Source of the DNA: Psammoneis japonica
Lineage: Eukaryota
NCBI GenBank assembly: GCA_008632985.1
Contig: QPGO01000014.1
Span: forward strand, 310,001 to 374,000
DNA: 64,000 nucleotides
Reading direction: 5' to 3'
The position numbers and the translations under genes are program-made. This document shows positions 23,800 through 50,249 of the stretch, piece by piece; position 1 is the first letter of the stretch, and the number at the start of each line of letters is the position of its first letter. The notes beneath the pieces are model-generated. The model was not told the DNA's origin and searched no databases. It saw only the letters and a list, made by a program, of their open reading frames with translations.

Positions 23800-24322
23800 T
23801 TTTCTTTCTATCGTCGCGGTGGCTTTTTGGTTCTCTCAATGATATGAGAAGGTCGGCAACAGTGAGAAAATGACACAGGCAGTGTCACAATTCACAATCC
23901 TGTGTCTGAGAAAGATCGCGACCAAACCGTGCTGCGTAGAATCTACGCGAAAAAGATACGGAGATTCGACACTTCGTGAGTTGCCTTCCGTGACATCCTG
24001 TAGAATTCTACGAAGTTTTTCCCGTATTGTTTTGGCGGGAAAAAGGAAAGGAATGTCCGCGATGTCAATGTTTCAAAATGCTGCAATCTGATTGGCTAAA
24101 CGACAAACTTCACTCTACTCCGCAATCTTCCCGCCATCCGATCGGCAGAACGAGTCGTCGCGGATCTTTGCTCGCAAATGTCGTGAAGCGAAACGATGGC
24201 CGAGAAGTTAGGTGCCGGTTCTGACAGTGAACAAGAATCAAGGTCAAGGCTGTGCGTTTCGAGAGTTCGATCTCTTTTTTTATTTAATGTCTGCCTTGTT
24301 TCGGTTCCGCCAAGAGCAAAAA

Positions 24323-24850
24323 ATGAGTAATTATCCCTTTCAAAAGACACAAGAAGAGTGGCGTCGGCAATTGACTCCGGAAGAACATCACGTGCTCCGA
24401 GAGGGTGGCACTGAATCGTACGGCAAGGGCGAATTCTGTCGATTCTTTCCCAAAGCTGGTTACTTTGCATGCAAGGCCTGCAAATATCCCCTCTATTCGG
24501 CGGCATCAAAATTTCAAGACCCGGGTTGGGACGCGCACTCCAAGTGTTGTCACAGCAACGACAAGCCTCATATTGGTGTACGAGAGGAGAATGAGGTAAA
24601 ACGAAACCCGTTTTGACTGTGCTCTGTATGGAGTGTTTGCCGTGTAAATAACGCGGTTAATCTTCTTTTTGCAAAACAGGTTTGCTGCAACAACTGCGGA
24701 TCGCACATGGGTCATGTGTTTTCCGAGCGCCGCCATAGCAATACAGGAGAGCGTCAATGAATCAACAGCATATGCGTAGTGCATGTTCCAGATCACCCCC
24801 CTCCGGAAAGCATTTCAGGAGAAGGACCATTGGGTGTGTTTTCAAAGTAA
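24323..24850 (+). CDS. msrB: Methionine-R-sulfoxide reductase B, selenoprotein (in-frame UGA at 24758-24760); intron 24596-24679
   Basis: [23 protein letters not shown] and [12 protein letters not shown] zinc motifs, GERQ-[TGA]-INS at the catalytic RxCxNS position. Reading continues to TAA 24848-24850, with a SECIS downstream. Confidence 0.9.
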
Positions 24851-24904
24851 AAACAAATCTTTAGAATAGAGTGGATTTGCGGAGAGCGGAAGTAAAGGAG
24901 TCTT

Positions 24905-24976
24905 CGTGGATGCGAATGACGGCGTGTGTGATCAAGAAATACATAGCTTGCCAAGCACGCCTGAAAGCATGGCACG
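24905..24976 (+). promoter_or_regulatory. Eukaryotic SECIS element in the msrB 3' UTR
   Basis: Lower stem CGTG.ATGC/GCAT..CACG, core ATGAC (24916) / TGAA (24962), upper stem GGCGTG/CACGCC, apical AAGAAA. Confidence 0.8.
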
Positions 24977-25088
24977 TGGTTTCCTTTTCTCGCTCTGCTG
25001 TCCACATTTTGAATTGAGAAACTGATTTCTTGTCGTGTTTCGTTGAGAGTCGGGTCTACTCGTAGAACAAGGAATGGCAGTTCTCTAG

Positions 25089-28000
25089 CCCCCGTGAAGA
25101 TTTTCGTCTGTTTTTTGTCCGTTCGTGCCCACAGGGGCACGAAAGGAGGCTACGTAGGACTGTACCAGCAAATCCTGTAGATGCACGTTTCCATGCCAAC
25201 AAGATTCATGAACCTCTCAAACGAAAAGAGACAATGGCGTCGTTCTGGATCAACGCCGTAGTTGCCACGTCTGAAACCGCAGCGCGCCGCTTTTTCTGCT
25301 CGTAGACTTGTACGCTGTCCTGGTACAAAGGTCATTGCATGCATGGAGTCTACGATGAGGTCACACTGAAGGAAGAATTCTCGAATTTGAATTCTCAGCA
25401 ATCAACCGAGTTTGTTTACTTTCTATTTTTTTATGCTGCCAACCAAGTCTTACAATCACACATCCCTGATTCTACCTGCATAAGACGACACTGAGATTTC
25501 AGTCCACACATAAGTTCACTTGCACCAATGGATGAATCGGCGTTGTGCTCGGTGACGACGTCCGAATCAGATTGGGTGGAGCATTTCAATCCAACAGAGG
25601 ACTTGAATTTTTGCGACGAGGATCTCCACTTGATTGAGGACAGCTTGATGGATGAGCATGATAGAACCGAGCAGTCAAAGGACCGTCCAAAATGGAAAGT
25701 GGACAATGATGGGAAAGATGTTAAGATTGCCTTTAGCCAAGCTCCCCAAAAGGTGTGGGAGACGGCCAAAGCCGAGATTACAGAGTGTCAAGGTTATTCA
25801 GAATGGTTCCAAGGACGCAAGCATGCATTGACCTCCTCTGGTTCTGATGCTCAAGTTTCAGTTCACCTTAGATTGGACAAAGCGCGAGAGCAGAGGCAGT
25901 CGCATTGGGTGTGCCTTGAGAAGCATCTCGACACGGCATCTGGTGTCGAAGATTTGGTGTGTCAAAATGATGACGATGATACGGCACCGGCTCAGAATGA
26001 CAATGATGATGCCACTGCACAATCCAATCCAATGACTGTTGGTGAAGGGAATGCTGCTGGCTCAGAGGACACCGATGATGATGACATTGTAGATTGGGCT
26101 GAGTTGGAAAAACACTTAGATTCAGACATGGAAGAGGAGGAGCGGATTTCTGTTATCGAGAGTCGCCGTTGGGAAGCAAAGGAGGCGTTGAAGAAAGCAA
26201 AGGAAATTCTCAGTGATGCAGTTGACTCCACCAAACGAAATGAGGTGTTGCGAGCCAAACTAATGTCGGAGTTGAAAGCTGGCGAGCACAAGGATCTCCT
26301 GAAGGCGTTCGTCAAACAAATGGGGTGGAAGGTTTGTAAGACGCACAAGGCAAACCTGAAAAACGCAGTTACGTGGCTAGAGTGTACCCCCGCCTCTCGA
26401 CCCTACATCGTGCTGAACAAGGAGCAACTGAAGGTAAGCATGTGTAATTGCTGCTACTGACATTATTTTACTATAGATCTAACCGAGTCGCTCCGAACCA
26501 TTATTTGCTGACAAAGGCAAAATACCGAGAATGTATTAACAGCACGATACCGTCGAGTGTGACAAAAACGATGACTTCATAGCGATTCTGAGCGGTGAAG
26601 TCTCCGCACCAGTTGCAAGAGATGGCGATAGTGAGCCAAAAACGCCACTGGAAGCAATGGTGAAAACCACTTTTCTTCCACCACTCAAAGGTGAGGCGGC
26701 GGAGCTCTGTAGATTGGACATGAGATGGAAGAACAGTGCGGAAAAGATTTTCTTGGTGTTGCAAGCGGCGAAGGAGTGCGACTCGAAAACAGATCCGTAT
26801 TTGTTGCAAACAATCTCTTCAGAGCCGGCCTGCTACAGAAGCAAAATCGCCCTTATCAAAAGGACAGTCCAGACTTCCTCTGCACTGGAACAATAGACGA
26901 TAAGCGAATCGTAGCGGTTGTCGAGATGAAGGCGCGTTGCAAATCTACTACCGCCGCCAAGGAGCGTCAGCGCATCTCCGAAGTTGGTGAATTTTCGTTT
27001 GTATCATGTGATTCGCCTGAGTTACGCAAGTTCATACTTAAACGTTCAGAGGCAGTTCAGGTGAGCTGATGCACGGAATAACTATTTGATACTGTCGTTG
27101 TAACGGTAACTCACCTCAGTCTCCACGACTTCCTCGCTACAGTGCGCTCATCATGCAAGCACCCTTGGAGTCAACCACGTCATTCTTGCCACTGGAGACA
27201 GAGTAGGCCTTACAGCAATGGTGGTTATTGAGTGCTCCGACGAGTTCCTTGAAAACTACGAAAAGTGCATCAACGACATGTACGAGTCGGCATTGAAGTG
27301 GCGTACGAGGAGGGCGTCGACATTCCAACCGAAGAGCTCAAGGCTGCTGTGAAAACTGCACGAGTAAAGGTGGACTATGAGTCATTTATGAAATCAATTT
27401 ACTTTTGGAAAGAACTGACGAAGCCTCAGTACTTACCACTCCCACCGTGCGAGAGGATCATTCCCATGCAGGATGCGTACTGGAACAACACCAAGCATGG
27501 GTCGGACGTCAAAACCCAGTACTGCCAAAACCTATCAGCCCCAATTCCTGTCACATCTGCCGGAGCTAAGGCATACGACCGCATGCAAATGACAGCACTA
27601 TCCGACATCCACAAAGGCGCTACCATGTTTATTACCAAGGAAGATCTCAACCAGTGCAATTCCCTTCACGACTTCAGAGACGATGCAAAGCACAAGATGA
27701 GCTTCAGAAAAGCACTCCTTCGATTGTCTAAGTTTTCAAGAAGCTGAGCCAGCAAAATCTCCAAAGTGGAATTGGTTCTCCTTCGTCTTTTACAGGGATC
27801 GTTACACCATCACCAGCAACTCCAGTACAGCCGCCGAGGTGGATGCGCGGTGAAATTCAAAAGGAACCAACCAATTTTGTAGCAAAAGGAACTGGAAAGT
27901 CTCCCAAGCGCTCTCACCTAGAAGCTCTACTGAAACCAAAGGACAGTTCTGAAGAGGTCCCTTCCAAGCGATTCAAGAGTTGTCGGGGTGTACCTGTGTT

Positions 28001-28493
28001 CAGAGCAAATGAAAACAATGGAAGTAAGAAAGGGAGTGGAGCTTTGGCGCGATGTATCATGTGCGACTCCAAGACACATTGGTATTGCTCTGGCTGTCGT
28101 CAATGGTATTGTTGCGATAGTCCCCGTCCGCAAAGCGCTGGAGTCCCATACTTTCAAGATTCGTCAACGTACCGTGATGGGAAAAACAGGGATCGACCAA
28201 TCGCCGGCGTGTACACATGCTTTATGCACTGTCACCCATCCATTGTGAACCAGGGATAGTAATATGTATTTGTATTTAGTGAATATATCATCTTTTTGAC
28301 CACCGGCGTAATTGTAGTACTTTGGAATATCATTTGTTGACAAGACGAGCGTTGTGTTGATGCTTTATCAATGAGAGCCGGTGTTTGTTTTGCACGTACA
28401 ACTCGGTATGAAACCTACAGGGGCGTCGTTCGTGCCCACAGGAGCACGAACTTTTGCGTTCGTGCCCACACGCGCACGAAACTATCACGCGGG
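25089..28493 (+). mobile_element. piggyBac-like DNA transposon with CTAG target-site duplication
   Basis: CTAG|CCCCCGTGAAG ... ATCACGCGGG|CTAG imperfect TIRs. Subterminal TTCGTGCCCACA...GCACGAA hairpins at both ends. The paralogous locus near 50465 lacks the insert. Confidence 0.88.
25528..28259 (+). CDS. Transposon ORF: YqaJ/lambda-exonuclease-like domain followed by piggyBac-type C-terminal catalytic motif and Cys-rich domain; two introns (~26434-26516, 27061-27141) and homopolymer frameshifts
   Basis: QGYSEWFQGRKHALTSS, LGHEMEEQ, DSPDF, VEMKAR (YqaJ-like); YWNNTKHGSDVKTQ and CIMC..THWYCSGC...CFMHCH (piggyBac-like). Confidence 0.65.
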
Positions 28494-28759
28494 CTAGTGG
28501 TCGATTGGTGTTGTATGCCTTTTTCAGTTTATCATCTTTTTTATGAACATCTCTACCAGTGGATACTGCTTTTTCCATCCCAGCCAGGTTAGATATAGGA
28601 AGGAACGTAAAGGCGATAGTGTTGGCGGGGAATTCGTGTTGCATGAAATTCGAGCTCCGCACTCTCAAAAACTGTAGACTTTTCGAAAATGCGTCAGAAA
28701 GCTCGGCTGCGCCGTTTCGCAACAAAAGAAACTTTTTTTGGCAAATGCCCACAACTTTA

Positions 28760-30194
28760 ACAATGTCACCACAACACACCCAAGACACCACTGCTGTCAA
28801 CAATTGTCACACATCATTTGTGGAATTTGTTTGTTGACTCAGCGATGTGACAGCAGTCATTTTGAAGGATGAGGCACTTTTGACTTTTGAGTCACAAAAC
28901 CATCTTCACAAGGCATCAGCGCGAATGTCTGTGTGAGCACACAAGAAACCAAAAAACCGCAACTTGGCATTGTTCTTCATTGTCCACACAACACATTTGA
29001 TTGCTTGCCCTTGCAAAGCAACCATTTTTGAAGGACGAGAGGCATTTTGTGTCTTTTCCTCAAATTTTTGCTGAGATTTGAAACTTGCTCAGGACTCTGC
29101 AAGAATTTGCTGCCTGTGATTCAGCCCTTCACTGGCCGAGTGTTCAGAGAGAATGTTTTCATCAATGGCTGGCATCATGGGGGCTTGCTGCTGACTGCTG
29201 TTGCAAAAAGAGAGATTCTGTTCTTGGTCAGCTTTGTTGGCATGATCGATTGTGTTGCTGAAAAAATGTGCAAAAAGTGCGCTCTGGTTTGAGTTGACCC
29301 CGTGCCCCTCTGCACTTGCAAGCAAGGCAACAATGAGAGATGGAGGTGCAAAGGTTTTTCTGTTGCAGGGAATTCCTTGTTTGGCCCTTGATTTCCTCCG
29401 ACAAGGAAAGATGAGGAGGAAACCAGATGAGGAAAAAATGGTTGTCATGGCTCGCTGCGAAGAAGTTTGTTCTGGCATCATCCTTTCATCCACTGGCATC
29501 ATCCTTTCATCCACTGGCAGCAAACTTTTTTCTGCTGGCAGCAGACTTGTCCAGAGCATGCAGCTGCTAAAACACTTTAGATGCTGCGTTGGACAAGTGA
29601 GGCAAATGCTGTTGGGGGGACCACATTGTGGGAATCATGGGACCAACACAACAATGCCATTCTCATGGTCATGATTTGGACACTGGCAAATCCGTGCACA
29701 ACGGCATGACACAGAGGCAGAAGTCCAGACTGCATGCTTGTGGTCTGGCAATTGCTTGGCCAAGGATTGATTCAGTTGACGAACATCTCACTCACTCCAC
29801 TCACAGGCTTTGAAATTGGTTGGCAATCATCAGCCCCAAGTTTAAATCCAGCATCTGTGAAGCAAAACGGCTGGCTTTGCAAGGCACTCATGCTGTTGCC
29901 AGCTGCTTTGGCATGGCATCACCTGATGGTGATGCCAATTCAGGCTGATTGCTGCATGCCCCTGCCGCACTTTAAGTGCGCTGGGGGTGTGGGTCAGCTT
30001 GTTTGTCGGAGTTGCGGGGCGGAAGTGCAGCAGCACCTTAAAAACAGATTGTGGGTTTTGTTTTGTTGGGGAGCATGTTGTTGGACAATGAAAAATTGAT
30101 TGTTGCAACATGGCTGCAAGTTGCAACCAACACGGCACTTTTGTCCAGCAGTTGACTCATCCTGTTGCAAGTGACAGAATCCACAGCTGCCAAA
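28760..30194. other. Heavily degraded TpA/CpG-poor sequence, continues at 31792-32380
   Basis: Composition only. Interrupted by the deleted Copia copy. Confidence 0.5.
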
Positions 30195-31786
30195 TGTCAG
30201 CCCAACTGTCCCATGACAGACAGACTGTGTGTGGATGATGATCATTCAGACAGATGAGCAGATCACTCTGAGATCTGCCTCTCACTTTTTTTCACTGGTG
30301 CTCATGTTGTCACAGTCCTGCAACAGTGATTGGGGAGTCCATTGTGCCATTGTCTCAATTGCCCTTCGGTGTTCTGTGAGGTTGTGGCCTCACGCTGTGC
30401 CACTGAACTCTGTGCCACACTTTCCATTTTGGTTCATTTGCTTTGTGAGCCAATCAAGCAAGCCTCATCTTTTGCTCCCAAAAGCATGCTTTGTGAGCCA
30501 ATCAAGCGAGCCTCATCTTTTGTTCCCAAAAGCATTTCTTTCTCACTTTCCTGGCATTTTTCATGCTTGTTGAAACACACCAGATTTCCTTGTGTGCATG
30601 ACCAAAATTGTTTTCACCAGATGCAACCATGGCCATCTCCTGGCCCTGCAAAAGCCACTCCCACAACTGTTGCAGAGATCTGCTGTGATTTCCAACCACA
30701 TGTCACCACACCGCATCTCCACGCATCTCTGAAAGGGCTTTGCATGGACTCCACATTTCATCTGGATCTGTTCTTTGAAGACCCTGAGCATGCTCAACCT
30801 GAGAAGAACATCGCGGACTTGTTTCATGATCATCTTGTCAATCAAGCATTCCCACCTTGCACAACAGACCTCGCCAACACACAGTCTGTCAAAGCAATTG
30901 TGGATCAAGCACCTCTTCAAGTTGTTGACCCTGACAAGCCTTGTGTGTTTTGCTTGACTCCTGAAGCTCCATCTTCCATGATCAAATTGACTCTTCAGAA
31001 TCACAGACAATCTTCACACATTCTCGTGTCAATGCAGCATGCCCACATTGATCCTGACATGCAATGGAATTGTGGAGATCGGAACAAGTTTTCTCTAACT
31101 CCTGGATGCACAACTGTTGTTGGTGTGAATGATCTGGCAGCAGCGCTCAAAGAGTTTGCATCAAAAGCCAAGTTCTGCCTTTGACTGCTGCTGGCAAGAC
31201 ATCAGGAAGCGCTGCATTGTCCACAACATCAAAACACCCATTCAACCCCAACACTCCACCCAAGGATGTTCACGAACGTTGTGATCACAAGGAATGTGGT
31301 GACATCACATTGAAGAGCTCGCTCACTCATTTTGACCATGGACACCATCACTGTGTTGATGCCAAGGCTCCAGGATGGGTGCTCCATGCTTGCCATGCTC
31401 AACACATGATGGGACACTGCCGCTGATGTTTTTTTTTCGTGGCGGCCTTCCTGCTGCACATTGCCCCCTTGTTTGTTGCACATTGGACTTGGACACTTGT
31501 TGTGTCCTTTGGTCTCCATCCCCACATCATCCCTGTTCTGTGGATTGATCTGCATTGTCTTTCATTTTTAGACATTGCAGATCAGGGGGGAGGGTGTCAG
31601 CCTGTCTGTCCCGCAATGGACAGACTGCACATGGATGATGACCAGACCATTTTTTGGACAGACAAGCAGATCTCTCTGAGATCTGCCTCTCACTTCTTCT
31701 TTTCTGCCAATGCTCATGTCATTACAGTCCCAGTGCTCAGGGAGTCCATCACACCATTGTCCTCATTGCCCTTCAGTGTTCTGTTG
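30195..31786 (+). mobile_element. Internally deleted (TRIM-like) relative of Copia-1
   Basis: LTRs 30195-30379 and 31595-31786 homologous to Copia-1 LTRs, TSD CCAAA on both sides, PBS-like GGTTGTGGCC, PPT AGGGGGAAGGG. 5' gag is fused near 31365 to the last codons of RNase H. Confidence 0.88.
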
Positions 31787-32403
31787 CCAAAACACTTGCC
31801 AACAACTTCTTTTTCAATGCCGCGCCAACTGCGCTCAATGGGCAAGGCAGATGATGCCATTGGGGACCACATTCTTGAGGACAAAGAGATGAGCTCCAAT
31901 GGTCTCTTCCAGCTTCTTGTTCTGTCCCAGCTGAGTCCACAACAAGCTCAAGTTGGGAGAAAGTTGTTCAACACATGCGTTTGGCAACAAGAGCTCCTTG
32001 ATCTTTCTCTGGCTGCCCGCATTGTCATCTTCGACAATCGCTGTCATGACAAGTTGTGTTCCATGTTGCCGGCGCGCTCTTGTCATTGTGCTTTTGTTCT
32101 CTCAGGCTTTGTTGCTGACAGTCGCGTGCCTAAAAACAATGTGCAGGCACACCACAGCCATCCCTGCTTGTTGTTCATGAGCTCGAATTTGCACACAGAG
32201 ACACAATGCTCCAGAGCATGTCTGTGCATTTGCACAGATTTGCACCAGTCGCATTGTAGAGTGATGTTGTTTGCCTGCCCCAATGAACTCTTTCTTGTGC
32301 ACAAAACACTTCTCAAGCCTGCCGGATGGGTTGGAGGCACATTTTCTTGGTGCAAGCACGTGGAATTTAATGCAGCTGCACACAGATGGTCTCTGGAGAC
32401 CAT

Positions 32404-34209
32404 GGAGTCACCTCAAAGTTGTTGAAACTGTGACTCAAATTGAAAAGCTTTCATCCTTGAACAATTTCACAAAATTTTGCAGTGTCTGCATTGTGGCACT
32501 GTTGGCAAATTGGGCTGCACAAAATTCAGCCTGTTGCCCATCACACATGCAAGCAATGAACAGCTGCACTTGGCGCTTTGTGTGGCTTTCAACAACAAGA
32601 AAGCAATTGCAGCATTTGTTGCCAAATGACTTTCAACAATGTTTTGTTGAAAGTTGTTAACTTTCAACACTTTTTTGTTGAAAGTCGTGACAACTTTTTG
32701 TTGAAACAAGTGACTTTCAACAACTGCTTTTTGTTGAAAGACACAACTTTCAACAACCTCGCCAGAAAATGCATTGGCACAAAAATCTGATTGGACAAGT
32801 GACGTGGTCTGAGACAAGCACGCATGACCAATGTGCATCATTGAATGCAGCATGTGGAACAATTCCCACTTTGCACAGCAGCAAACTGCAGCGCAGCACA
32901 ATGAAGCAAGCCGACGGTGTCCCACTTTACAGCGTGATGTCTCAACAATGCTTGCACCATTTTCCCGTTTCTTTTTTCATCATTGGGAGCAATTGCACAA
33001 TGCGTCCTGCTGGGTTTGCCCCATTGTGTGTCATTGAGAATTGTGGAATTCTGTTTTGTTTGAAACCTCAAAGCAGCTTCAAATTTGGAGAAGCATGCAC
33101 AAAGGATGCAGGTCAGTGCCACTCAATTCTCAGTGGTGCTGTCACCAGTGTTCTCACTTCTGAGTCTCTCATTGATTCCAACAAGACTCAGAACAGCAGG
33201 TGGGATTGCCAGGCTCAGAGCACAGAGCAGCCAATGGTTTGGCACCAGTGTTTCACTCAGAGCTGCAGATGGTGCCTGATGATGCACTGGGTGAGATGGA
33301 AGTGCATTGGAAGGCAGCTCACTTGGAGCCATCAAAGGTGCTCCGCTGTTGGCAGATTTTAAGAAATTAAGAATTCTGAAACCACTGCAGCCAAAAAATC
33401 TGAAACTGCTGTGTTGCACACTCTGAAGCTGCCACCACAAACTTTGAAACTGCTGCCATGAATTGTCAAACTGCCAGAACCACCAAACCAGCACTGAACT
33501 GCTGAGCCAACTTCAAGCCACTCTTGGTGGCTTTGGCAAGGCATGCATCACTCCAGCTGTTGTCATCACGATCTTTGACTTTTGTGTCGCCCAACTGCAG
33601 TGCAACCCTGAGAACAATGGCTGTCAGTGACCCTGACATGTGTCTCCTCCTCAATGGACAAACGGCTCACCCTTCACCCACCACAATGTCAGCTGGAATT
33701 GGGTTCACCACTCTTTGATGTGTGGTCAATGATGCAATTGAGGCATGATTTCAGGTTGAAAGAGCTGTTGAATGCACTGACTTTCAAGAGAATGTTTTTG
33801 TTGAAAGCACAACTTTCAACAAAAAGTTGTTGAAAGATCTAACTTTCAATGGATTTTTTTTTAAGATCTAACTTTCAACAGATTTTTTTGAAAGATCCAA
33901 CTTTCAACAGATTTTTTTGAAAGATCTAACTTTCAACAACTTTTTTGTTGAAAGATCTAACTTTCAACAACTTGTTGTTGAAAGTTGGTTGTCTGTTGAG
34001 TTGTGACAGCAAACTCAATGTGAAACATCTGTGGCTGAGTGTTTTCACACAAGGAAAAGGCAATTGTGTTGTCTTCAATGGACGCATGTTGCACAGCACG
34101 CAAAAATGTCCATTTTGTCAGAGTCAACAGCGGGAATCAGATGCACTGTGCCTGCATGCACAAGCACAACAGGACAGCTTTGAGCTTTCAACAGATTTGA
34201 GGTGACTCC
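32404..34209. mobile_element. Degraded non-autonomous TIR DNA element with subterminal palindromic arrays
   Basis: TIR GGAGTCACCTCAAAGTTGTTGAAA / TTTCAACAGATTTGAGGTGACTCC. Arrays of ACTTTCAACAA...TTGTTGAAAG at ~32628-32757 and ~33780-33986. Confidence 0.7.
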
Positions 34210-37200
34210 CACATTTGCAGGTGACAGTGCACAGATGGTCTCTGGGTGCTGGAGACCATCTGTGCATGTTGAACAGGGTGTCACAATGTCCAGATTGTCA
34301 TCCACAAAGCAAAGCATGATGAGATGCAATGGGCATGGTGCAATTCTTTTAGGTGCTGATGTTGCAATGACCAAATTGAGATTGTGAGGAGAGGAGACTC
34401 TCAACGTCTCCTCTTCTGAATCACTTGAGTGATGTTTTTGTTGCTGACATGATTCTTTGCAACGGTGAGTCACAATGACCATCGTGGTGATTTGACAATC
34501 TTCACACTCCCTCTCAGTGTCTTGCAAGTTGAATCAGCCAATCAGATTGAGTTTTTGTTGCTCTGGTTGCCATTGCTTGTGAAGAGCAATTGCCCTTCAC
34601 ACTCACCAACCCACGACCAAAGGACACAAGGCCTCAAGTGCATCAGCAGTCAAGGGCTCATCAAGACAGTCTGCCAGTTGATCCTTTGAATCAATGCCCT
34701 TTGTTGAAATCTCCTTCCTTGTGGCACAGTCACGGAAGTGATGCAACTTGACATTCAAGTGCTTGGTGCATGGTCTGCACTCATGTGCGTGCGCCATCTC
34801 CAGAGCAATGCTGTTGTCTTCAAACACTCGGCAATGAATGAATCTTGGGCTGTGATGTCTTGATGGGGAATCCGTGCCACTTGAGTTCTTTCAGCATCTC
34901 CATCAAGGGCATGGTTTTTTGCAGAGCACATGACAAGCCAGTGCACTCAGACTCAGCACTGCTTGTGAGGCTGTCTCAGTCTGAAGCTGAGATTTCCACA
35001 ACATGGGACAACCTGCACAAGCAACAACACAACCATGTCATGATCTTGCTGTGTCGCAATCTTGGCATGCTTCTTGTGGATCCCAATTGCCGGAATCCTC
35101 ACCTTTTGCAGGTTTCAGGACAGCACCCTTGTCTCTGGTCTTGCACAAGTGTTGGCCCAGCCATCTGATGGCCTTGCCATGCTCAACCTTGGGATCTGCT
35201 GCAAACTGTGCACACTGGTGGGTGATGCATGCAATGTTGCTTCGGGTGCACTTCTCCAAATGGCTCAGCTTTCCAACCACAGATCTGCAGTTGAAGGAAC
35301 CATCAAACAGTTCTGAGTTAGAATGCCTCAGGAGAATTTTGGAGGATGCGCGTGAGCATCCTTTGGCAGTGTGTTTGGCAAATCCAATTGCAAGTCCTTG
35401 AGCATTTGGTCAATTGGGTGTGGTTGCGTCAAATGAATGGTGCCATTGTCTTTTCTCACGACATTGACACCCAGAAAATCCTGCATGTCTCCTTCCACAG
35501 CAATGTCAAGCTTTGCCTCTTTAAGTTCCTTGATGATTTGATCAACTTCAATTTCATCAGGACCGGCAATGAGTGAGTCGTTGGTGCACAGGAGACACAT
35601 GGTTTTCCCACAATAAAACACACACTTGTCAATTTTTGATTGATCAAATCCAAGCTTGTTCACAAGCCTGTCAACCAAGTGCTTGTTCCATGCTCTGCCA
35701 GCCTGTTTTTGACCATGTGCATTTCAACGGAGCTTCAGAACACAGTCCTTGGCATTGCCTTTGTCGATTTTGAATCCCACTGGCATTTCCATGTAAAGCT
35801 CTTTCTCTGCTGGTGCTTTAGGAAAGGCTGAGTTGCAGTCCAATTGCTTGGAATGCCACCCATTCATTGCTGTCAGGGTGAGCTTCATTTGAATGAAATT
35901 TTGTGATGCTGCTGGCGTGCATGTCTCATCACAGTCTCACCCATTTCTCATTCTCAAGCTGTCAACATTCAAGCGAGCTTTCCACTTCTTGACCTTGTGA
36001 GTCCCAATGTTGTGCTTGCATTTCATCTGCCACACTGCTGGCAGCACCTTGCTGTCTCTTTTCACCTTTGATCATGGAATGATGGAGAAGTCACCATTTT
36101 CCATTTGATCTGTCACCTCCTTTTGCATGGCTTTCAGGAATTGTGTGCAATCTGGTTCCTTCATTGCCTGATGCACGCACATGGTGTCAGGATCTGCTGA
36201 TGCTTCACAGGCAAGGAGGGGATTCTTCTCTTCCCAGAGCACTTGTGAGTCTTGGGATGCATTGCAGCCAAACACATTGTCTCACCCTTGACATTGCTCC
36301 TTGTTTCAGCACTGATTTTAGACATCATGGCTTGCATCAGTCTGCTGACCGGTCGGCTTTTACACCCTGAACAAGTCACTTTCAGTGCATTGACGCCACT
36401 TCATGTCTCATCAGACTTGCGCTCACTTAGAGCTGCTTCCAGAGATTCAGTCGCAGGTGTGGATCCACCCTTGTCTGTTTGAGTTGTGTGTGTGGACATC
36501 TTGCCTTGACGCCACTTGGCCAGTGGCCACTGCAGTGTCACCGCTCTGTTGTGGTGGCTCCGGATCTTGTGGGTCAGTCCATTGAACTTGTTTTTGTTGT
36601 TTCTTGCCCTGCTCAGCTCCCTCTGAATTTGCTTTCTGCTTTTTCATGATTGGAGCTGGTGTGGATGCCGTTTTGGCTGCTCCACCAGTTTTGGCCTTCA
36701 TTGCCTCCCTCTTGGCTGTGAAGCCGGCTTTGACCTGCCATTGCAAATCAAGCTTGTCCTGCTGCACTGTGTGGAAGGATGGATCATGTTTGACATGGAA
36801 CTGTGGGCTCATCAGAGCAGTGGCTTGATCCAATGCAAGCACCACATTCTTTCCATGCATTGGGCTTTGGCCCAAGTAGACTCCGACCCTTGATCTTTGC
36901 TTCCGTTTGTGGCGCAGCAGGTTGGATTGCCACAAAGTGCCATCACGAATGTGCGCTGGACAGCCAAAAGGTTTCCAGTGCTTTGGGTTTGCAGAGACTC
37001 AAGATTTGGAGAACATCTTTGGTGGGGTCAACTTGCCCTTGTTTTGTTGTGCACGTTGTTGGCCATTGGCATCACGTGAGGCCACAGGTTTGCTGTGATT
37101 GCCTTCTTCCACTGGCTTTGAGCATGTGTTGACATGCTCCGTGCCAGATCTTGAAGTTTGCAGATTTGGCACTTGGCCATGCCGTTCATGTGATGAGCAC

Positions 37201-40200
37201 CTGCTGCTGTGAAAGCAAGCTGTTGCCCCTGGGTTCGACATGCGAACACCCAGTTGATTGCTTTGAAGATGCTGTTGTTGGTGTGGCAGGCTTCCACTGT
37301 GACTCCACAGCTTTTGGCATGCTGCTCAAAAGCACGTTTTCCCTCTGATGTCTCTGCTGCCAATGCCCTCTTTTGCAGGTGCACGTGTCCCAACTTGGAG
37401 CATTGATCCACGCACACTGTTGCACACATGTGCCATTTGGTTGTTGGCCATCTCTGGTCATTTGAGCAATTGACCCCAGTGTTTGTGATTGCAGTTGATC
37501 TGCTGAGATGACTTGGCCTGGGCGTCAGGGTTTTTTTGTCAGTTCCTGGTTGCATCACATTTTTTGTCCCATCATTTCCACTTTGTTGCCTTTGCACACA
37601 GGCACTTGGAGCAGACAGGTGCATTGCATTTTGCCAGGTCCTTGGGAAGTGTTCCCAATCTTGCCATAAATTGCAGTTTCTTGAAACTCATGTGACCAAA
37701 TTGTTGATGGCATTTTAGGAGCGGTGATGCCCCAGTGAACTGTTGGCAATCTTCTTCATCCTCCACCATGGTTGGTGGTTTGGGGTCCACTCCCTCTGAG
37801 GTCAAACTTCACAAGTTGTCCGTGTCTCCCTCATGCTTGCCACTCAAGTTTGGCCCATCTAAGTTGTCATGAAATCTGCCGCCGTTGATCCGTTGCCTTC
37901 CTCAGGTGCCAACCCTGAGTCTTGCAACAGATCTTGGCCCTCAGGTTGCCATTCATTGCACTGTGCATCCACGTTGCATTCACCTTCAGCTTCATCTTGG
38001 CCCTCATCATCAATGACAACAGCAGCCTCTTTGGCTGGAATGGGATCCTCAACTTCATGTGCTGGGTCATTCTCTGCTTCTGCACAGAATGCTTCATGCT
38101 TTTGGCACCCTGGTGCCAAGTGAAACACAGCCACATTGGTCATTTCGCTCAGTGGCACAGCCAGTTGATGCCTCTTTTGATTTCAAGAGAGGGTCACTCA
38201 TTTTGAGTCGGCATTGCTGCCTGTGCCTTTGCTTGGTTTGTTGTCCCTTTGGGTGTTGGGGGCTCAGCAGTCTGACCTTTCCACTTGGTGGCAGAACAAA
38301 TTTGGTGTCTTGAGCTTGTGTGTTCTGCCTTCATTGTCATTCCACCTCCATGGCAGGGTGCCCACCTTGAGTCCAGTTGTTCTCAAATCACCGAACCCTT
38401 GATGGCTCTGTTGCAATCTTGCAACTCACCAACAAAGCCTTCCACACAATTGGATGTGCAACCTGCAGCCTGATTGTCAACCCCCCGACTGGTCCAGAAT
38501 CAGCATGGAAGGCCACCGTGTGTTCCAATGTGCTCTTGTGTTGAGCCTGCATTGCTGCCACCACCACAGCCATTGCTGTGGCACAGCATCACAGTTGCTT
38601 GGGTCTCTTGAGCTTGTCCATGGACTGGTGGAGCCTTTGGATCCTCCCTCTTCTGGGTGAGTCAGTGTTGGTGTCGATCACTTCAATGGAGTGTGTGACT
38701 CGTTCTCTGATGCTGTGCAATGTGTCAGTCAAATGGCACCAACCAGAGCGTAGCCTGCACCATTGCTTGCACTTGGGTGTGCAGTGTGGTGATTGCCTTG
38801 GGTTGTCATTGCAGCAGAACAACAAGCAGATGACAAGAATTGCAGCCTGTGGGCTGCAATGAGCGCAGGCCATTGAATGGTCTGCAATGATCAGTGTCAG
38901 AATCATCAAGGTCGTGCAATTGTGGGCTGTCGCCTGCCATGCAAAAGCAGAGCTGTCACTTTTAAGAAAGCACAACACAGCATCACAAGGTTCCCAATTG
39001 CATTTCCATCTCACACATGATTGCAGCAGTCACAACCATGGCCGTGCTCCAGGAGTCATTTGGAATCCTTGTCCGACCCTTCCTTGTCGACGACTGCCTT
39101 GCATGCCTTTGCAAGCTTGGTGCATCTCTTTTCATTGCACCTGTGGCCAAACTTCTTGTCCCATCCATTGTCACTCTTGTCTTTGGCTGGCCTTTTCTTG
39201 TTGAACTGCTCTGGATTGAATGCACAATTCTCTGGGGTGTGCTTGTGCCACTTGCCAGGGCATTTGCCCCCAAGGTCCTTGTGGCAGCAACAGTTTGGTG
39301 CTGCTCCACTCCAATGCTTTGGCTTGGAGATCACATCCTTGGCTGGGTGCAAGTTGTCCTTCATCTGCTTGGGCATGCCTCCCTTCTCACTGTCTTTTCC
39401 TTTGCCATGCTTGGAGTCATTCCAGCTGCTTCTGGCATTGTCCTTCTTGGCTCGCTTTTCGATGCCTTCAAGCTCCGGGAGTTTCACACGGATCGTGCTT
39501 GTGGTCACGTTTCCATCAAGGTGCGACTCTTGAATGATGACTTTGAGGAGCAGGCAACCAGAAATCTTGTCTCCAATCTTGTGGGACTTGTCATGGATGT
39601 GCACCTTGTCCACTCCATTTTTGGAGATCGAGCCAATGAGACAGCATCCAAGCATGACAGTGTCTTGGGCCGCATGGCAAGGATTCACAATGCATGACTC
39701 CTCGTGTCTTTCAATGCATTCCAAGCTGATCTCACCACAATTGGTGAGCAGGTTTGAGTGCATCACATCAGCATCAGCAGGGTCCTTGGGCATCTCATCA
39801 GAATTCCCATGACTGGGTCATTCCATCCGAGCAAGCTTGCGCCCTGTTCTCTCGGCATTCTTGAGGAACTGAAAGAGCTTGCCTGGAGTGCAGTCGAACT
39901 TCTCCCCACTTTGGCTCTTCCAAACCAGTTTGGAGTGATCTTCATCCAGCACTCTTGCAAAAATCCACTGCCCCCATGATTGCCTGAGCTGGAGCCAGAG
40001 CAAATGGAATGTCCTTGTCGGATGACGACAAGACACTCGAAGCATCCGATGTGTTTCCAGTCTTTGGTGCAGAGGAAGCATGTCACAACATCCAGAGCAA
40101 CATCCACAAAGCAAAGCACAATGAGACACAATGGACATGGGGCGATTCTTAGGTGCCAAGTGTTGCAGCGACTAAATTGAGATTGTGAGGAGAGTTGCTT

Positions 40201-40267
40201 GAGTGACGTTTTTGTCGCTGATGACAGTCTTTGCAACGGCGGGTCACAATGACCATTCTGACGATTT

Positions 40268-40449
40268 TGCAAGATCTAGCTTGAGATGACTTGACAAAAG
40301 TTGTGGGAGAACCAAGAAGAGACCCGATCAGCGCAATCGCTGATTGGAACTGACTTCCAACGGCTTCCTGAGTGTCCAATGCATCAGTCAATGTGCATGT
40401 GTCAGAGAGGGCACACTTGGTCATAAAGTGCATGTGCCCATCTCATTCA
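40268..40449 (-). repeat. Gypsy 3' LTR (TpA-depleted copy)
   Basis: Colinear with 45744-45925, 17 transitions. Confidence 0.95.
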
Positions 40450-40499
40450 CTCTTCCCCTCCATGGTGCAAGGAACACGCGCACCATTGGAACCACTTGA

Positions 40500-43400
40500 C
40501 TAAAACTCAAACCCAACACGCACGGTGAAGGGAACCCAGATGTTGGGAAGAAACCCTCAACTCCGGTGCGGCACCACGCGGCGAACATTGATTCGCTCAA
40601 TGATGTGCGGTGCTCGCAGCACCGAAACAGTCCCGTTGGCGTGGACTTGTGCAATTCAAAACGGACCACAGGCTCGTTCTTCCAACTTTGAAGGATCCAC
40701 CGACTTGATTGACACATCTTGACCAACCAGACAATCGCAGGAATGGCGCTTCGCATTCTGTCGTCGTAGATTCTCGTCAACCAATGCTTGTCGGTTGGCT
40801 TGTGTCGCAGCAAGGTCGGAGACAACTGGCAAGTCCAAAATCACATCACGTTGAAACACTGGAGCTCCACTTGAAACACCCACAGACCTTGAGTGGGAGC
40901 ATCGTAAAGCACAAGAGGCTGCAGCAAGGGCATTGTCCACAATCTGCTCGGCCTGTTGAACATTTAAAGGTGGGTCAGCGACAACCACAGCACGTGAGAT
41001 GTTAGCTGCTGTCTGGTGCATTCGTTCACAAATGGAGTTGGCTGTAGGATTTCGAGACGTCGTCGGCGCATCAGCAACACCCGCTTGATTTGGTGGCATT
41101 TGGAACTCCCAACCAATGAATTCTCCACCATTGTCATGGATGCATGATTCGGTCTGGGACAACGAGCTGACCAAAGATTGCGAAACTTGCCAGTCACATG
41201 CTGAGAAGTTTTGTTGTCAGCGCGCTTGAGTTCAGTCAATCCAGTGACAGCATCAATGCAAGTGAGAGCACTGAATTCAATCTCTTGGTCTTAAATCGGC
41301 ATTTTCCACGGTCCAATGAGATCAACCGCCACTTCCGTCCACGGAGCCAAAGGTGCTTGACGTTGAGGCAATTCTCCATGTCCAGGACCCAGCTGTTTAA
41401 ATCGTTGACACGCATCGCAAACAAATTCGTTACAACATCGACGCAATGCAGGATGACACACATGAGTCCGAACACTTTCACACAATTGCACAACTCCACA
41501 ATGGCCCAACACACGATGGCACCATGCAACGGCATCTGGCAACAACGCAGCAGGAATGCAAATTTTCCAGGCTCCAGGCGGATCATTCAGATGCAAACAA
41601 CAACAAATCAAGGGACGATGATTCACAATTTTGACCACGAACTGCTGCGGATTTTGTTGTCTTTGTTGGTTCAGTTGGAGGTCTTCGAACTGGAACTGTT
41701 GTGTCCTCAGCATCTCAGTGGGATTCGGCATTTCGTCCAGCGTTGGGTAATTCAAAAAGCACTCAAACAATTCAGGCTCATCAAGCAGAGAGGAAAAGGT
41801 GGCGTGAGACTCATCAGAAGGATCAACCGGAGCACGGCAACACTTGAACCTGCAAGCGCCCAACTCCAAATCTTCCTCTTCCTTGGCTTTGCTCAGTTCC
41901 TTGGAATCCAACTTTTCAAAATGAACAATTTTTCCTTTGCGTTTGCTGCTTGGCCCAAGGCTCTTCCCCTCCGAAGGTGGATCCATGCGTGGGAGTCAAG
42001 AAAAACAATCGGCGAGCACGTTGTCCTTGCCTTCAACATGCTCAAAGGTGGGCACGAAATCTTCGAGAAACAGTCGCCAACGGAAGGACACGCTGTGCAT
42101 TCAAAGTGTGACAGGTGAGATTTTTGTGATCAGCATGAACAGTGATGTCAGCACCGAGCAACATGGAGCGAAATTCCTTGAAGCACATGACGACGGCCAG
42201 GAGTTCTTTTTCCATTGTAGAGCAGTTGCATTGAGCCGCCGAGAGCTTCTCAGACCAATGTGCCACAGGTTCACCATCTTGAACAATGGCGGCGCCCATC
42301 TGGCAGTCTGATGCATCGGTGCAGACATGGAATGGTGGGTTGTGGTTAGGACAGGCCATCAATGCTTCCGCCACAATTGCTGCTTTCATCTCCTTGAACG
42401 CTTTCGGACATGATTCTGTCCATTGGAACTGACTCTTGCCTGTCAATTCAGTCAGAGGTGCAAGCAGGTGAGAACAGCCAGGCCACACATTGCGACAATG
42501 GGTTGCTGCACCAAGAAACGACCGGAGCTGAGTAGCATCCCGTGGAGGTTGCATTTGTGGGATCGCCTCGACCTTCTTTTTCCACGGTTTAATTCCAGTT
42601 GGAGCAAGCCAATGCCCCAGGAAATCAGTTTCTTGGACACACCACTCGCATTTCAACGGGTTAACTTTCAAACCATTCTCCTCGAGATGATGCAGCACCT
42701 TGTCAAGATGAGAGAGATGGCAACCAAAGTCAGCATCAAATGTGCCAATGTCATCAACACAAGTTTCAACATCCAAACCATGTGGGATCTTTTCAACAAT
42801 GGACTGAGCAATGTCTGGAGCTGGCTTCAATCCCACAGCCGTGCGACAACACTGGAACTTCCTGTGCGGAGTTGCAATCGTAGCGAGCTCCTTGCTTTCA
42901 TCGTCCAACTCCAAATTGTAGTAGAACACAGTGAGGTCCAATTTCGTGAAGAACTTGTAGCCCGCTCTCCGCTGTAGCACATCTTGAATGACTGGCAAAG
43001 GACATGCTTTTCGTTTGAGGACCTTGTTGAGCTCCCAAAAATCGGACACCCATCGTGCTCGGCCGTCCTTCTTCGGAGCAATGAAGGTGCCGGCTGCCCA
43101 TTCCGTAGGTCCACATGGTCGAAGTACGCCGAGGTTCACCAAATGCTTCAATTCCTTTTTGAACACTTCTTCATTGACTCGAGCAACAGGAAACGGTTTT
43201 GAGTGACATGGAACAGCATTTTCATCCACTTCGAGGTGCACCTTTTCATGAGGACAGTGCCCCAAAGTTCCGTCAAACAAGGTCGAACATTTTTCCAATG
43301 CCGCCAGTGGCTTCTTCTTTTGCTCCTCCGTGAGATGATCCAAGTTCCGAACCACCTCGCTGGATCTGTTGCTTCACACTTGGCGTCGAGCACACAGTTG

Positions 43401-44035
43401 TCACACCCATCATCGCATCCACAGTCCGACTCGTCTTCATGATTTTCATCAAATTCATCCATTCGATCTAAAGCCACACACCAGTCACAAGATTTGGACC
43501 AATGACGAGGTTCCTTCATTGGGATCACATGGTCCAGCCATCGCAGTGTCCTCGCATCATAGTTCAGGTTGAGACCAATCTTGTCCAAGAAGTCTCGACC
43601 CAAAATGATGTCATGCACACACGGAGCATCAAATGCGTGAGCCACACAGCTGTCAATCCTCCCAGTTTTGTCAAATTCTGGTGACACGACATCGCTCAAG
43701 GCTGCCCAACGACCCGATTGGAAAGGACCAGCCACGGTTTGGAAAGCTCTGACTCCATGTTCGTCAACAGATGGTGTGGCTCCTCGAGGTAAAACTTGGG
43801 ACAAAATCACAGTGTGAGAACCACCTGAATCGAACAAAACACGCATCACACGATTTGACTCATGCCATTGGATTGATTTTGCAACAAGCAGTGCAGATGG
43901 GACCAATGCGGTGCGCGAGACTTGCGAACTCATTTTGGGGAGAGGAACATTGTGTTCAAATGCATCTTGATCAAACACATCCCCCTCTTCATTCATGTAA
44001 TTTTCTGCAGCATTTTCAAATTCAGTGGGTGACAA
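40500..44035 (-). pseudogene. Gypsy pol (protease, RT, RNase H, integrase), frameshifted
   Basis: LFDSGGSHT protease, KLDL and TCVDD (from YxDD) RT, CTDASDCQMGA and EKELLA RNase H, HxxLGH/CDAC, VDLIGP, HDNGGEF, NSICERMH integrase. Confidence 0.92.
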
Positions 44036-44173
44036 TTCGTCAGGATTTTCAAAACAATCAAAAGCAAAACATTCATCATTTCATTCAGGCAAAACACAAT
44101 CATTTTCTTCAACAAATGCTTCTCTCACAGGCAATTGGGAGCATTCAGCTCCGGAGCATTCAGCTCCTTCTTC

Positions 44174-45430
44174 TCAGAACTGCCGAGGAAACTGCCCATC
44201 CGGCTGAAACCTCACCACACCTCTGCATCTTGGAGGGCCTCGTCCGATCATGTCGAAATGGCGCACATCACCACGAGGAGCTTCTCGAGCCTGGTTGTCA
44301 TTGTTCACATTGTCTGCTTGAGCAGCATGTCCGTCGGCCTGTCCTTGGCCTCCACGGTTGTTGTTTTCATTGCAACAATGTTGACCACCACCTTGGTTGC
44401 CATTGTCATTTTGATTTCCATTGTTGTTGTTACAATGGGTGCCACGACCTCCTTGGTTCTGGTTGCCACGACTGCCAAAGCGTCCACCACCTCCACGGCC
44501 TTGACCACGGCCTCCTTGGAAACAACCTCCGCCTCGACCTCCACCGCCACGGCCTCCTCCTCGACCGCCACGGTTTTGAGGCCCACGAAAGTTAGGGTTG
44601 TTTGGATTGTCACAACATTGGCCCCACGCATGCCTTCCATGGTGCCACGGGACCGGACACAGATCACCTGCCTTCGGTTGGCCCTTGCTGTCCTTCTTGT
44701 CACGGTTGCCCTTTTTGTCACTGGAGTTTCCTCCGTTGCCATCACTGGACTTGCGTTTCTTGTCATCTTGACCGTTGGCAAACACCTTCTCGTCACTCAC
44801 GCAGGCTTGGATGTCAACCATAGAATCCGCAACAAGGTTCTTGCCCACACGAATGTGGGACTGCTGCCAGGTCAAAGGGAAGGTGCAAAAGATGACATTT
44901 TTCTGCTCCTGCTCTGCAAGTGCAGGAACGGCGCCAGGCAAATGGTTGGTGCAACGAAACAACGTCTCCATGCGATCAACATGAGTTTCAGATTCCACTG
45001 AATGAGGCTTTTTGCAAGTGGGCAAATGCATCTTCATCGTGTCGCGAGCTGTCGGTTTCACGCAGGGCAGACAGCAGGATGAAACAGCCTGATCAAATCG
45101 AGCCACCGTCCGTTGATTCTGTGGAATGCCCGCGGTGACATTCTGCCATTTTGCCTCCGCAGTTCCTTGGAGACAATCCTCGAAAGCATCAAATAACTCC
45201 GTTCCGGCATCACAATCTAGCTGTCTTGCCACCTTCCGGAACCTGTCCTCCACATGCAACAATGATTCAATCCCATGCTCTCCTGTGAAAATGGGACACA
45301 TTTTTGAAAGTTTAGTGCCATCATCGAAGGTTTGAGTGAGCTTCACTTCCTGTAGCTCAGAATCCACGAATTTGGTTTTGTGTTCAACACACGCTTTCTC
45401 CAAGGCTTCTTGATGCATGGCGATGAACAA
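44174..45430 (-). pseudogene. Gypsy gag-like ORF
   Basis: 418 aa with a CPV..H..H.W..C zinc-knuckle-like motif and RGG-rich tail. Contains no Tyr. Confidence 0.8.
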
Positions 45431-45743
45431 TTTCAGCGATCAAATGATCAACTGTCCACAAGACAAACGAAACAAAACGTTCCCAATTGATCCACACAAC
45501 GAGAACAATCAATGACCAAACAATGACGAATTCAAGAGTGGCAACACGAGATTCGAGTTCAAACAAATGCTGTTCCGAATCGCCAATTTCACGAGTGTAA
45601 TTGCGCTGCACTTCTGATCGACTTCGAATGAAATTTTCTGCACGAGCTCGCAAACAAATTTTCTCTCTTCTCGACAACACTCTTCGCGTTGTCATAAAGT
45701 TGACAATGCAATGAACAAGCTATGACAACGACTGTAATTACAG

Positions 45744-47653: not shown

Positions 47654-48750
47654 ATGAGAAGTCAAAAAGAAAGAAATAATGCAAGAAGAGCATTGGGCAG
47701 GAGTCCTCTGTTTCCGTTTTAATTGTTCTCTTTGCTGTTGTCACATCAGCACTTTTGAGTGTTCCCACTGTTCTTCAAAGTGAAACGATGCCACAGTGCA
47801 TCACAACACCAGTGATGCCAATGATTTTTCCACTGGGCATTGTTGGGACATTTTTGCTTGGCAGTGGAAATCCCCAGCTTTGGAATGCCATGTGCTCCTT
47901 GTTTCTGCTGCAGTTGACTCAACTCATTGTTCCTCAAAAACTGGACATCTTGGGAGCCGTCACTTGTTGATCACTTGAATTTAGTGGCACTTGGTCAAAA
48001 CAATGCTTCACATCAGCATAAGATCATTTTCTTTGAACAAGACTGCAGCTGTTTGTCCAAACTTTGATGGTTTTTCAATGATGACTCATGAACACCAATT
48101 TATGATGCCCATTGTGAGTGTTTGCTCATGCCACAAAAGAGTGTTTTTGTGTCCTCCAAAACACATCTTCCTCATCTTGAACATGCGCTCAATGCAACAT
48201 GAGCATGCTGATGGAACCCATCTAAGCACCCATGTGCCAAGCTCCATTGGAGCACATTCAAGGCAAACAATGGCACACCACTGCATTTCTGCATCTGTCC
48301 ATGGTGCAAAAATGTGAGTGTTGAATCAAGACAGATCCAGAGACAATTTTTTTGCCACTCTGCTCTCCACATCAGGTGGCAGGGTGGGCCCCACTGGCAC
48401 AGTTGTTTTGTGAGCCAGCAACGCAGGTTCCAGACTCCACCAACCCGGAGGACATGTGCCATTGGGTTCCAGATTCCATTTGGTCAGAAGGAACTTTGAA
48501 CCTTCCGTTGGATTCTGGATTCCATCATCAAGCTGCACACCAGTGTTGGGTCGTAGGTGTCATGTCTCATGAGCCACTCTCTTGGGTGTGACAGATGGGG
48601 CTGCCAGTGTTGAACACACAGGCCTCTCCAGAGAGTGGGTTGGGTGCTGCTGCACACAATGGAGTTCAAGCACAATGTGGTCATCTCATGACACAAAATT
48701 GCGCATGAAGGCGCAAAGGATTTCTGTTGAGCTTTTGTCAATGCCGTTGT
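47654..48750 (+). pseudogene. Possible hypermutated remnant of a host-type (type II membrane) gene
   Basis: ATG followed by basic then hydrophobic codons, then TpA-free broken frames. No domain recognised. Confidence 0.3.
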
Positions 48751-49733: not shown

Positions 49734-50249
49734 ATGAGCAATTGTCCCTTTCAAAAAACAGAAGAAGAGTGACATTGGCAATTGACTTTGGAAGAATGTC
49801 ATGTGCTTCAAGAGGGTGGCACCGAATCATGCTTTGATTCTTTCCCAAAACTGGTTGCTTTGCACGCAAGGCCTGCAAACACCCCCTGCATTCAGTGGCA
49901 TCAAAATTTCAAGACATGGGTTGGGACATGCACTCCAAGTGTCATTGTGGCAATGGCAAGCCTCACATTGGTGTGCAAGAGAAAAATGAGTTGAGACAAA
50001 ACTCACCTTGGCTGTGCTTGGTGTGTCAAGTGTTTGCCACTCAAGCAATGCGCTTGCTCCCCTTTTGCAAGACAGGTTTGCTGCAACAGCTGAGGGTCGC
50101 ACATGGGTGCCATGTGTTTTCTGAGCACCACCACAGCAATGCAGGAGAGCATTGGCAAATCAACAGCTCATGCATGGTGCACGTGCCAGACGACCCCCAC
50201 CTGGAAAGCATTTCAGTGAGAAAGACCGTTGGGTGTGTTTTCAAAGCAA
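49734..50249 (+). pseudogene. msrB: Hypermutated paralogue of msrB (intron retained, Sec codon and SECIS degraded)
   Basis: Colinear with 24323-24850 including intron and 3' flank. Homology extends ~49670-50625. Former TAA stop reads CAA. Confidence 0.9.

Follow-up and report, generated by a model that had tools for sequence, protein, structure and literature searches.

TpA-type changes in one form of a transcribed msrB gene beside a fully changed paralogue in the diatom Psammoneis japonica

RIP of ascomycetes, a premeiotic process with a RID/DNMT4-like methyltransferase, changes C to T, creating TpA, and alters both members of a linked duplication, often in opposite directions. ADAR and TadA/ADAT2 produce A>G outcomes with a strong preference for a 5' T or U. 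Loss of TpA from DNA is the subject of a preprint on Bigelowiella natans, whose accessible text describes TpA hypermutation of integrated viral DNA, with a rate raised about 1000-fold and activity in some lines only, proposes an ADAT-type deaminase and suggests wider foreign targets (bioRxiv 10.64898/2026.01.13.699255). According to the same text, the affected regions there are of viral origin, the large one being single-copy and silent. The word 'diatom' is absent from that text, and our literature search, which covered a minority of subscription journals, found no diatom or algal report of TpA hypermutation, the Bigelowiella preprint being the only relevant match.

Here we describe a locus in Psammoneis japonica at which TpA has become TpG or CpA on both strands. 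As in Bigelowiella, the changes fall on both strands and are regionally confined; there, the accessible text reports patchiness between lineages, and here the load varies by haplotype and copy. Unlike the system that text describes, the organism is a diatom, the targets are transposons and a host msrB gene rather than viral DNA, erasure goes to completion in old tracts, and one allele of a live diploid gene is hit. The process is like RIP in making dinucleotide-specific transitions in repeats and, at the msrB duplication, in leaving changes in both linked members. It is unlike RIP in that TpA is lost by A>G (singleton C>T at CpA: 0 of 4930 sites), in that near-identical silicon-transporter (SIT) duplicates and a tandem repeat at 17404 escape, and in that one msrB allele is spared. 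The msrB locus contributes a live gene whose unhit state appears in a spliced transcript, with partly and fully hit states also on view.

msrB copy A and its paralogue

The gene lies in the window, by which we mean the whole 64,000-nucleotide stretch of DNA analysed, and consists of the following parts.

24323..24595, plus strand: msrB copy A exon 1, 91 codons, with a SelR (PF01641) match and variants
24596..24679, plus strand: intron, 84 nt, GT..AG, with 5 TA kept and its spliced joint in run X2
24680..24850, plus strand: exon 2, ending in TAA
24758..24760, plus strand: in-frame TGA, codon 118, at the catalytic position; CAA in copy B
24916..24965, plus strand: SECIS-like hairpin from folding, ATGA...TGAA, with a non-canonical loop

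Copy A shares with the MsrB/SelR family (PF01641) a domain match, scoring 38 bits in exon 1 and 26.6 bits in the exon 2 part (curated cut-off 24.9), together with two zinc-binding CxxC pairs (CKAC and CNNC) and the catalytic R-x-[C/U]-x-N-S motif, here RQ*INS; seven MsrB sequences in the PDB also match it. Two homologues (P0043 and P0052) read RHCVNS, placing Cys opposite the in-frame TGA, at which the X2 contig agrees with the window. Conservation continues beyond the TGA on the evidence of three homologues; many other homologue calls stop just before it. Judged from the sequence, the TGA probably encodes selenocysteine. The hairpin downstream folds with z=-2.0, and a search of Rfam with it gave no match at E<=5. 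His126 (24782-24784) occurs in the window, copy B and the X2 contig where all three homologues reaching that far have Tyr, and it is possibly an older, fixed TpA hit. An AlphaFold model of exon 1 was set aside (mean pLDDT 48.8), the accessible part of PMC7539508 held no detail on diatom MsrB, and, of the SelR loci in the genome, which include two others, the analysis covered copies A and B.

Copy A belongs to a duplication whose other member, copy B, lies in direct orientation about 25 kb away.

24269..28676, plus strand: A side of the duplication, about 1.0 kb, made up of 24269-25088 and 28494-28676 and split by an insertion
25085..28497, strand not assigned: young multi-copy DNA-transposon-like insertion (25089-28493 proper) between CTAG target duplications
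28760..45600, strand not assigned: TpA-erased transposon tract, beginning about 600 bp from the nearest msrB hit on the empty-site haplotype
47720..50470, strand not assigned: TpA- and CpG-erased tract containing most of copy B
49680..50629, plus strand: copy B, an msrB pseudogene with stops and frameshifts, its intron kept

Because copy B keeps the intron, the duplication took place at the DNA level. Over the part aligned with 24269-25088, all 31 TA of the unhit state described below are changed in copy B, as are 25 of 25 when the window's own copy A is the reference (14 to TG, 11 to CA), and 34 of 40 CG of copy A have become TG or CA. Today the copies are 69-83% alike per 100 columns, and their longest exact run is 21 nt. 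A conserved GGCGGGGAATTCGTG...AATTCGAGCTCCGCACTCTC stretch (28621-28676 and 50579-50629) ends the duplication just upstream of the 50690 ORF, and the 21 kb between the copies resembles an insertion flanked by a 1-kb duplication. A tblastx comparison of the window with itself returned noise from summed statistics and was not used.

Unhit and partly hit states of copy A

We compared the window with contigs from public runs X1 and X2; a third run, X3, gave no contig here, and all three come from one sample of one study. The X2 contig over msrB (depth 105) skips the intron exactly, and because of its spliced joints we treat this run, which is on record without an RNA label, as RNA. It differs from the window in seven letters in 24178-24593 and in none in 24678-25054. 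The X1 contig (depth 55) is unspliced. It is unhit at 24386, 24424 and 24455 and matches the window at 24536-24553, and two further hits bring its total to six. The variant positions are as follows.

24386..24388, plus strand: codon 22, His (CAT) in the window and TGT in copy B; the X1 and X2 contigs have T at 24386, hence Tyr
24424..24425, plus strand: silent TpA hit, codon 34/35; C in the window, T in X1 and X2
24455, plus strand: the sole non-TpA variant, A>G after A, Thr45>Ala; A in X1 and X2
24536..24538, plus strand: codon 72, His in the window and the X1 contig, Tyr in the X2 contig
24548..24554, plus strand: three adjacent TpA hits at 24549, 24551 and 24553, giving Tyr76>Cys, Tyr77>His and one silent change
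24736..24743, plus strand: two TpA hits in the X1 contig only, 24737 (Ser>Gly) and 24743 (Thr>Ala); the window is unhit

Where the window's copy A has His22, His72, Cys76 and His77, the X2 contig has T at 24386, 24424, 24536, 24551 and 24553 and A at 24455 and 24549, and so reads TA at all four codons (Tyr22, Tyr72, Tyr76 and Tyr77). Of the eight TpA hits, six are in exon 1. The window allele departs from the transcribed state by five substitutions, Y22H, T45A, Y72H, Y76C and Y77H.

A first-pass annotation had reported CAT at 24386-24388 against TGT in the paralogue, TGT-CAC at 24548-24553 against CAT-TGT, and TGA against CAA at the Sec codon, and had proposed that ancestral TAY codons were changed in opposite directions in the two copies. 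The codons read as it described, and the proposal is borne out: TA is read in the spliced contig, and copy B is changed in the opposite direction at five of the seven alignable hit sites, 24549, 24551 and 24553 among them. Our comparison adds Tyr72>His (24536), the silent hits at 24424 and 24553, and 24737 and 24743 on the X1 contig. Tyr72>His leaves no swap between the copies because both now have CA.

We rejected the number of TG/CA swaps as evidence of TpA hits. Nine are seen between copies A and B, but 5.2 are expected from two-step changes in copy B alone (background C>T at 15 of 153 non-CpG sites, then TA conversion). Four of the nine resolve to TA in the X2 contig; the remaining five, including the Sec codon, match that expectation. 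The annotation's own caveat that swaps can arise by multi-step paths is therefore sound in general but does not apply to codons 22, 76 and 77, where TA is read.

Homologues give the same ancestral state. We searched 167 exon 1 homologues, the aligned number differing by position. The annotation took the Tyr of EEYxVLR as established, and it is the commonest residue, though not the only one, at position 22 (Tyr 109, Phe 42, His 3 and Cys 0 of 156). Position 72 has His in 1 of 122 and Tyr in 12 of the 12 closest, and position 76 has Cys in 2 of 72. The 12 closest homologues have neither His nor Cys at positions 22, 72, 76 or 77. This comparison, which the annotation had put forward as the refuting test of its reading, leaves that reading standing at the first three; position 77, with Tyr in 27 and His in 16 of 71 homologues, is weak alone. 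A metagenome scan of 58 candidate stretches yielded two loci, one (L076) with TAC at codon 22 and an intron ahead of codon 72, the other a match of 12 residues. Copy A has lost Tyr to His or Cys in 4 of 8 conserved-Tyr columns; the figure is 0 of 24 for two genes that are single-copy within the window and lie 460-2140 bp from erased tracts (P=0.002; sulfite oxidase 0 of 14, the gene at 45997 0 of 10), although selection may shield these two.

Eight of the nine variants in 24269-25086 are TpA-type, the expectation being 21% (P=3e-5), and none is CpG-type. No TpA-type change occurs among the 19 left-flank variants listed, which include every difference of two X1 flank contigs with three each. 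As a control this flank is weak alone (0 of 12 transitions TpA-type, P=0.05). In all, 6-8 of the 31 TA of copy A are hit, with one ApA change and no CpG change. The annotation's view that this copy is at an early stage agrees with this load, as the stage of one haplotype and not of the locus. Among 27 TA of the duplicated intron, UTRs and flank, no hit was seen.

The assembly contains two DNA matches for the msrB segment; a search of it for a third msrB copy, or for a haplotig of the flanks, found neither. In X1 the depth is 55 over msrB and 51-56 over the flanks, falling to 32+27 or 36+37 where alleles assemble apart. Since msrB and flank depths are equal and only two matches exist, there is no hidden third copy, and the msrB versions therefore very probably belong to one diploid locus. 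That locus has an unhit form, spliced and with nine Tyr, in which each of the eight sites reads TA, as well as partly hit forms, one of which is the sequence in the window. Very probably these are alleles, one of them recently hit by the TpA mutator of this genome.

That no mutator acted on copy A, the differences being neutral allelic variation, sequencing error, conversion from copy B or RNA editing that restores Tyr, is extremely unlikely. His does occur naturally at positions 77 (16 of 71) and 22 (3 of 156), the assembly has nearby single-base deletions relative to the contigs, and the TA state at 24536-24553 comes only from the RNA-like run X2. Against this, eight of the nine variants are TpA-type, four of the window hits are backed by the independent X1 DNA contig, TA at 24386 and 24424 is present in DNA, and editing would require C>U plus G>A. 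Conversion from copy B is excluded, because the two copies changed oppositely at five of seven sites and none of copy B's CpG losses is found in copy A.

Two histories would fit the window and the X1 contig: both may be mosaics of an unhit allele and an allele with all nine changes, or both may descend from a four-hit allele and have diverged since. The contigs carry no phase, and allele expression is beyond their reach. The accessible text of a diatom study reports frequent mitotic recombination between homologues (10.1101/2020.11.08.373134), so real msrB mosaics are possible. The spliced contig is unhit at every one of four or five independent places, a hint of allele-biased expression.

A TpA-specific process and its chemistry

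Whichever strand is hit, the msrB changes are A:T>G:C at TpA, and they come from the process that also erased copy B and the transposons. In the window, transposon tracts have a TpA observed/expected ratio of about 0.0-0.2 and genes mostly 0.4-0.8. CpG is mostly kept in younger tracts, and CpG decay joins TpA loss in old ones. Of two LTR pairs, the Copia pair at 1400-8615 shows five TG/CA swaps, and in the Gypsy pair at 40268-45925 13 TA lost from the left copy survive in the right.

The spectrum could be read in the family of the 3.4-kb insertion, which lies 240 bp downstream of msrB and whose empty site is present in a run X1 contig. The family has 46 genome matches; we fetched 30 loci and used 19 copies or fragments of at least 95% identity. 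Its termini are CCCCCG...CGCGGG, its target duplications are 4-bp NTAN (CTAG, CTAT, TTAT, ATAA), and one ORF has a Cys-rich end; none of six insertion ORFs matched Pfam, and an Atlas search gave no usable match. X2 contigs show a plus-strand intron at 26434-26516 and CT..AC joints at 27355 and 27989, and this apparent splicing on both strands makes double-stranded RNA possible. At 26495-27732 the window has several one-base deletions relative to the X1 and X2 contigs, which break the insertion ORFs and are probably assembly errors.

In the young copies 64 of 75 singleton A>G fall at TpA. Per 1000 sites, singleton A>G occurs at 26 TpA, 1.6 ApA, 0.6 CpA and no GpA; singleton C>T occurs at 3.3 CpG, beside the zero at CpA already given, and TpA is lost about 8 times faster than CpG. 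Hits are on both strands, mixed within a copy, and the same TA are recurrently hit, in both directions, across the family's sites (L007-L033). Among copies 96-100% identical, the load runs from 1 of 127 TA to 46 of 69. On the 3' side, rates are 0.075 for TAT and TAC, 0.047 for TAA and 0.026 for TAG, with shared events counted per copy; Tyr codons are therefore favoured targets.

A>G with a strict 5' T suits an adenine deaminase, and from this context alone we infer one of TadA/ADAT- or ADAR-type fold acting on DNA. The order T>A>C>G in young copies resembles ADAR. The difference from ADAR, TadA and ADAT2 is that here the changes are fixed in DNA; the loci L041, L044, L060 and L061, putative candidates for the enzyme, belong to ordinary tRNA-editing families. 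The full set (L041, L044, L060, L061-L062) comprises ADAT2/TadA-like loci and two A_deamin-domain loci; the genome also has 27 DNA_methylase matches, several of them broken (L064-L075).

For the enzyme step only, we weighed error-prone repair synthesis, in which a polymerase eta-type enzyme would introduce A>G at the WA sites of repeats that are methylated or under repair. Polymerase eta has a WA motif, with spectra far less skewed than that of the TpA mutator. The second-best context here, ApA, resembles that motif, and CpG decay accompanies the process in old tracts; but TpA exceeds ApA 16-fold, transversions are rare (nine singletons in 32,299 copy-sites), and in young tracts and the hit msrB allele TpA is lost with little or no CpG change. 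We regard this alternative to a deaminase as distinctly unlikely.

What brought the process to msrB

In the explanation that we favour, a chromatin-targeted adenine deaminase would work on silenced DNA, its inosine being copied as G. One msrB allele would have fallen under silencing, most likely through homology with copy B on the same chromosome, and the other would have stayed active and kept the function. For this chain as a whole, from homology through silencing to deamination of one allele, we see the case as evenly balanced, and the homology trigger by itself has about the same standing as all other triggers together.

Two observations speak for homology: no msrB hit falls outside the duplicated segment, and the single-copy genes close to erased tracts are unhit. 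Against it, the longest exact run between copies A and B is now 21 nt, both alleles are equally homologous to copy B although one was hit, the 27 duplicated TA outside the exons show no hit, and other duplicates escape. The genome is that of a diatom, with about a dozen long SIT matches and with diatom sequences as the named homologues of one window gene. SIT paralogues 99-99.8% identical show 0-2 TpA-type differences; one pair lies 25 kb apart on one contig, and one pair may be an assembly duplicate. In this family (L037, L038, L048-L059) near-identical duplicates are unhit and two relics, L058 and L059, are fully erased. The direct tandem repeat at 17404-18136 (365 bp, 98.9%, 21 TA per copy), which may be an assembly artefact, differs by four one-base gaps and shows no TpA-type difference. 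Of the duplications, copy B is fully hit and one copy A allele partly, while the SIT duplicates and the 17404 repeat are unhit. In Bigelowiella the process needs no duplicate, because the target there, according to the accessible text, is single-copy. The first-pass annotation had concluded that the system reaches duplicated host genes; a live host gene has indeed been touched, and duplication as the draw is the part put in doubt by the unhit SIT duplicates, the single-copy Bigelowiella target, and the transposon and erased tract nearby.

A more elaborate version of the homology reading is a homology-guided A-to-G 'reverse RIP' in diatoms, active in vegetative cells, in which a dead paralogue directs the process onto one live allele, perhaps via RNA. 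The window and X1 forms would then be two descendants sharing four changes that afterwards gained three and two, a mutator caught between samplings. RNA guidance would be suited by the exonic position of all eight hits, and by our reckoning this version is rather unlikely.

The nearest other candidate is the young transposon at 25089, which could bring the same mutator in cis: a silent domain nucleated at its left end, or read-through RNA from there, would extend some 700 bp into msrB on the haplotype with the insertion. An empty site exists, and the insertion can therefore be allele-specific; the left 1.2 kb that msrB faces is the hot part of the element (in five full-length copies 28 of 168 TA hit, against 16 of 469 elsewhere); the left-end rate of the window's insertion copy, 2-5 of about 33, is indistinguishable from the 6 of 31 in msrB (P=0.14-0.75); and some insertion copies carry hits in their target-site duplications. 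Over its whole length, however, the window copy has 2-5 hits of its own among 127 TA, fewer than msrB (P=0.0008-0.008). An argument that counts just one private hit in that copy goes too far, since recurrent hitting of sites allows it 2-5. Moreover, the window and the X1 contig show no hit at the 11 TA lying between 24744 and the insertion, nor does the X2 contig as far as 25054; the X1 contig, though possibly a mosaic, joins six hits to the empty site; and a coarse test on five young copies found ordinary TA counts in their left flanks. With the insertion placed on the unhit haplotype, the window and the X1 contig each require one switch; with it on the hit haplotype, each requires two. On this balance we think spreading from the transposon unlikely.

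Silencing might instead have begun with an ordinary lesion in one allele's promoter, untranscribed DNA being the mutator's default substrate and copy B and the transposon unneeded. The X1 haplotypes differ upstream of the gene by six substitutions in 23959-24018 and a 61-base skip at 24095-24157, which sits 20-80 bp before the start of the transcript contig; all eight hits are exonic (8 of 19 TA against 0 of 27); and the spliced contig shows the unhit state only. No phase connects the promoter variants with the hits, however, the contigs cannot measure allele expression, and the exon-only pattern is biased, because intron or flank hits common to the window and X1 would be invisible. A promoter lesion is accordingly quite improbable as the starting point.

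Spreading in cis from the old erased tract that starts at about 28760 is very improbable. On the empty-site haplotype the hits lie 606-963 bp from that tract, but the intervening DNA keeps its TA (12 in 28494-28676 and 11 in 24744-25088), in two genes similarly far from erased tracts none of 24 conserved Tyr has become His or Cys, subject to possible shielding by selection, and the SIT gene L038 is an unhit island between two erased tracts. Homology with copy B, leading to silencing of one allele, thus remains the trigger that we favour, at the strength given above.

These results suggest that a little-known transposon-destroying mutator reaches live host genes too, which would have other consequences than a mutator that spares genes. 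If TpA hypermutation reaches one working allele, clustered Tyr>His/Cys variants would result and the diploid would possibly be functionally hemizygous; if so, the TpA mutator may, like RIP in fungi, make gene duplication costly. In such genomes a reference gene model may show the damaged allele and not the expressed one. The msrB locus combines a 530-bp gene known in three states, from unhit through partly to fully hit, with a dead paralogue and a transposon that can be present or absent, and is a ready reporter for the question that the accessible text of the Bigelowiella preprint leaves open, namely whether homology, a transposon or silencing is the trigger.
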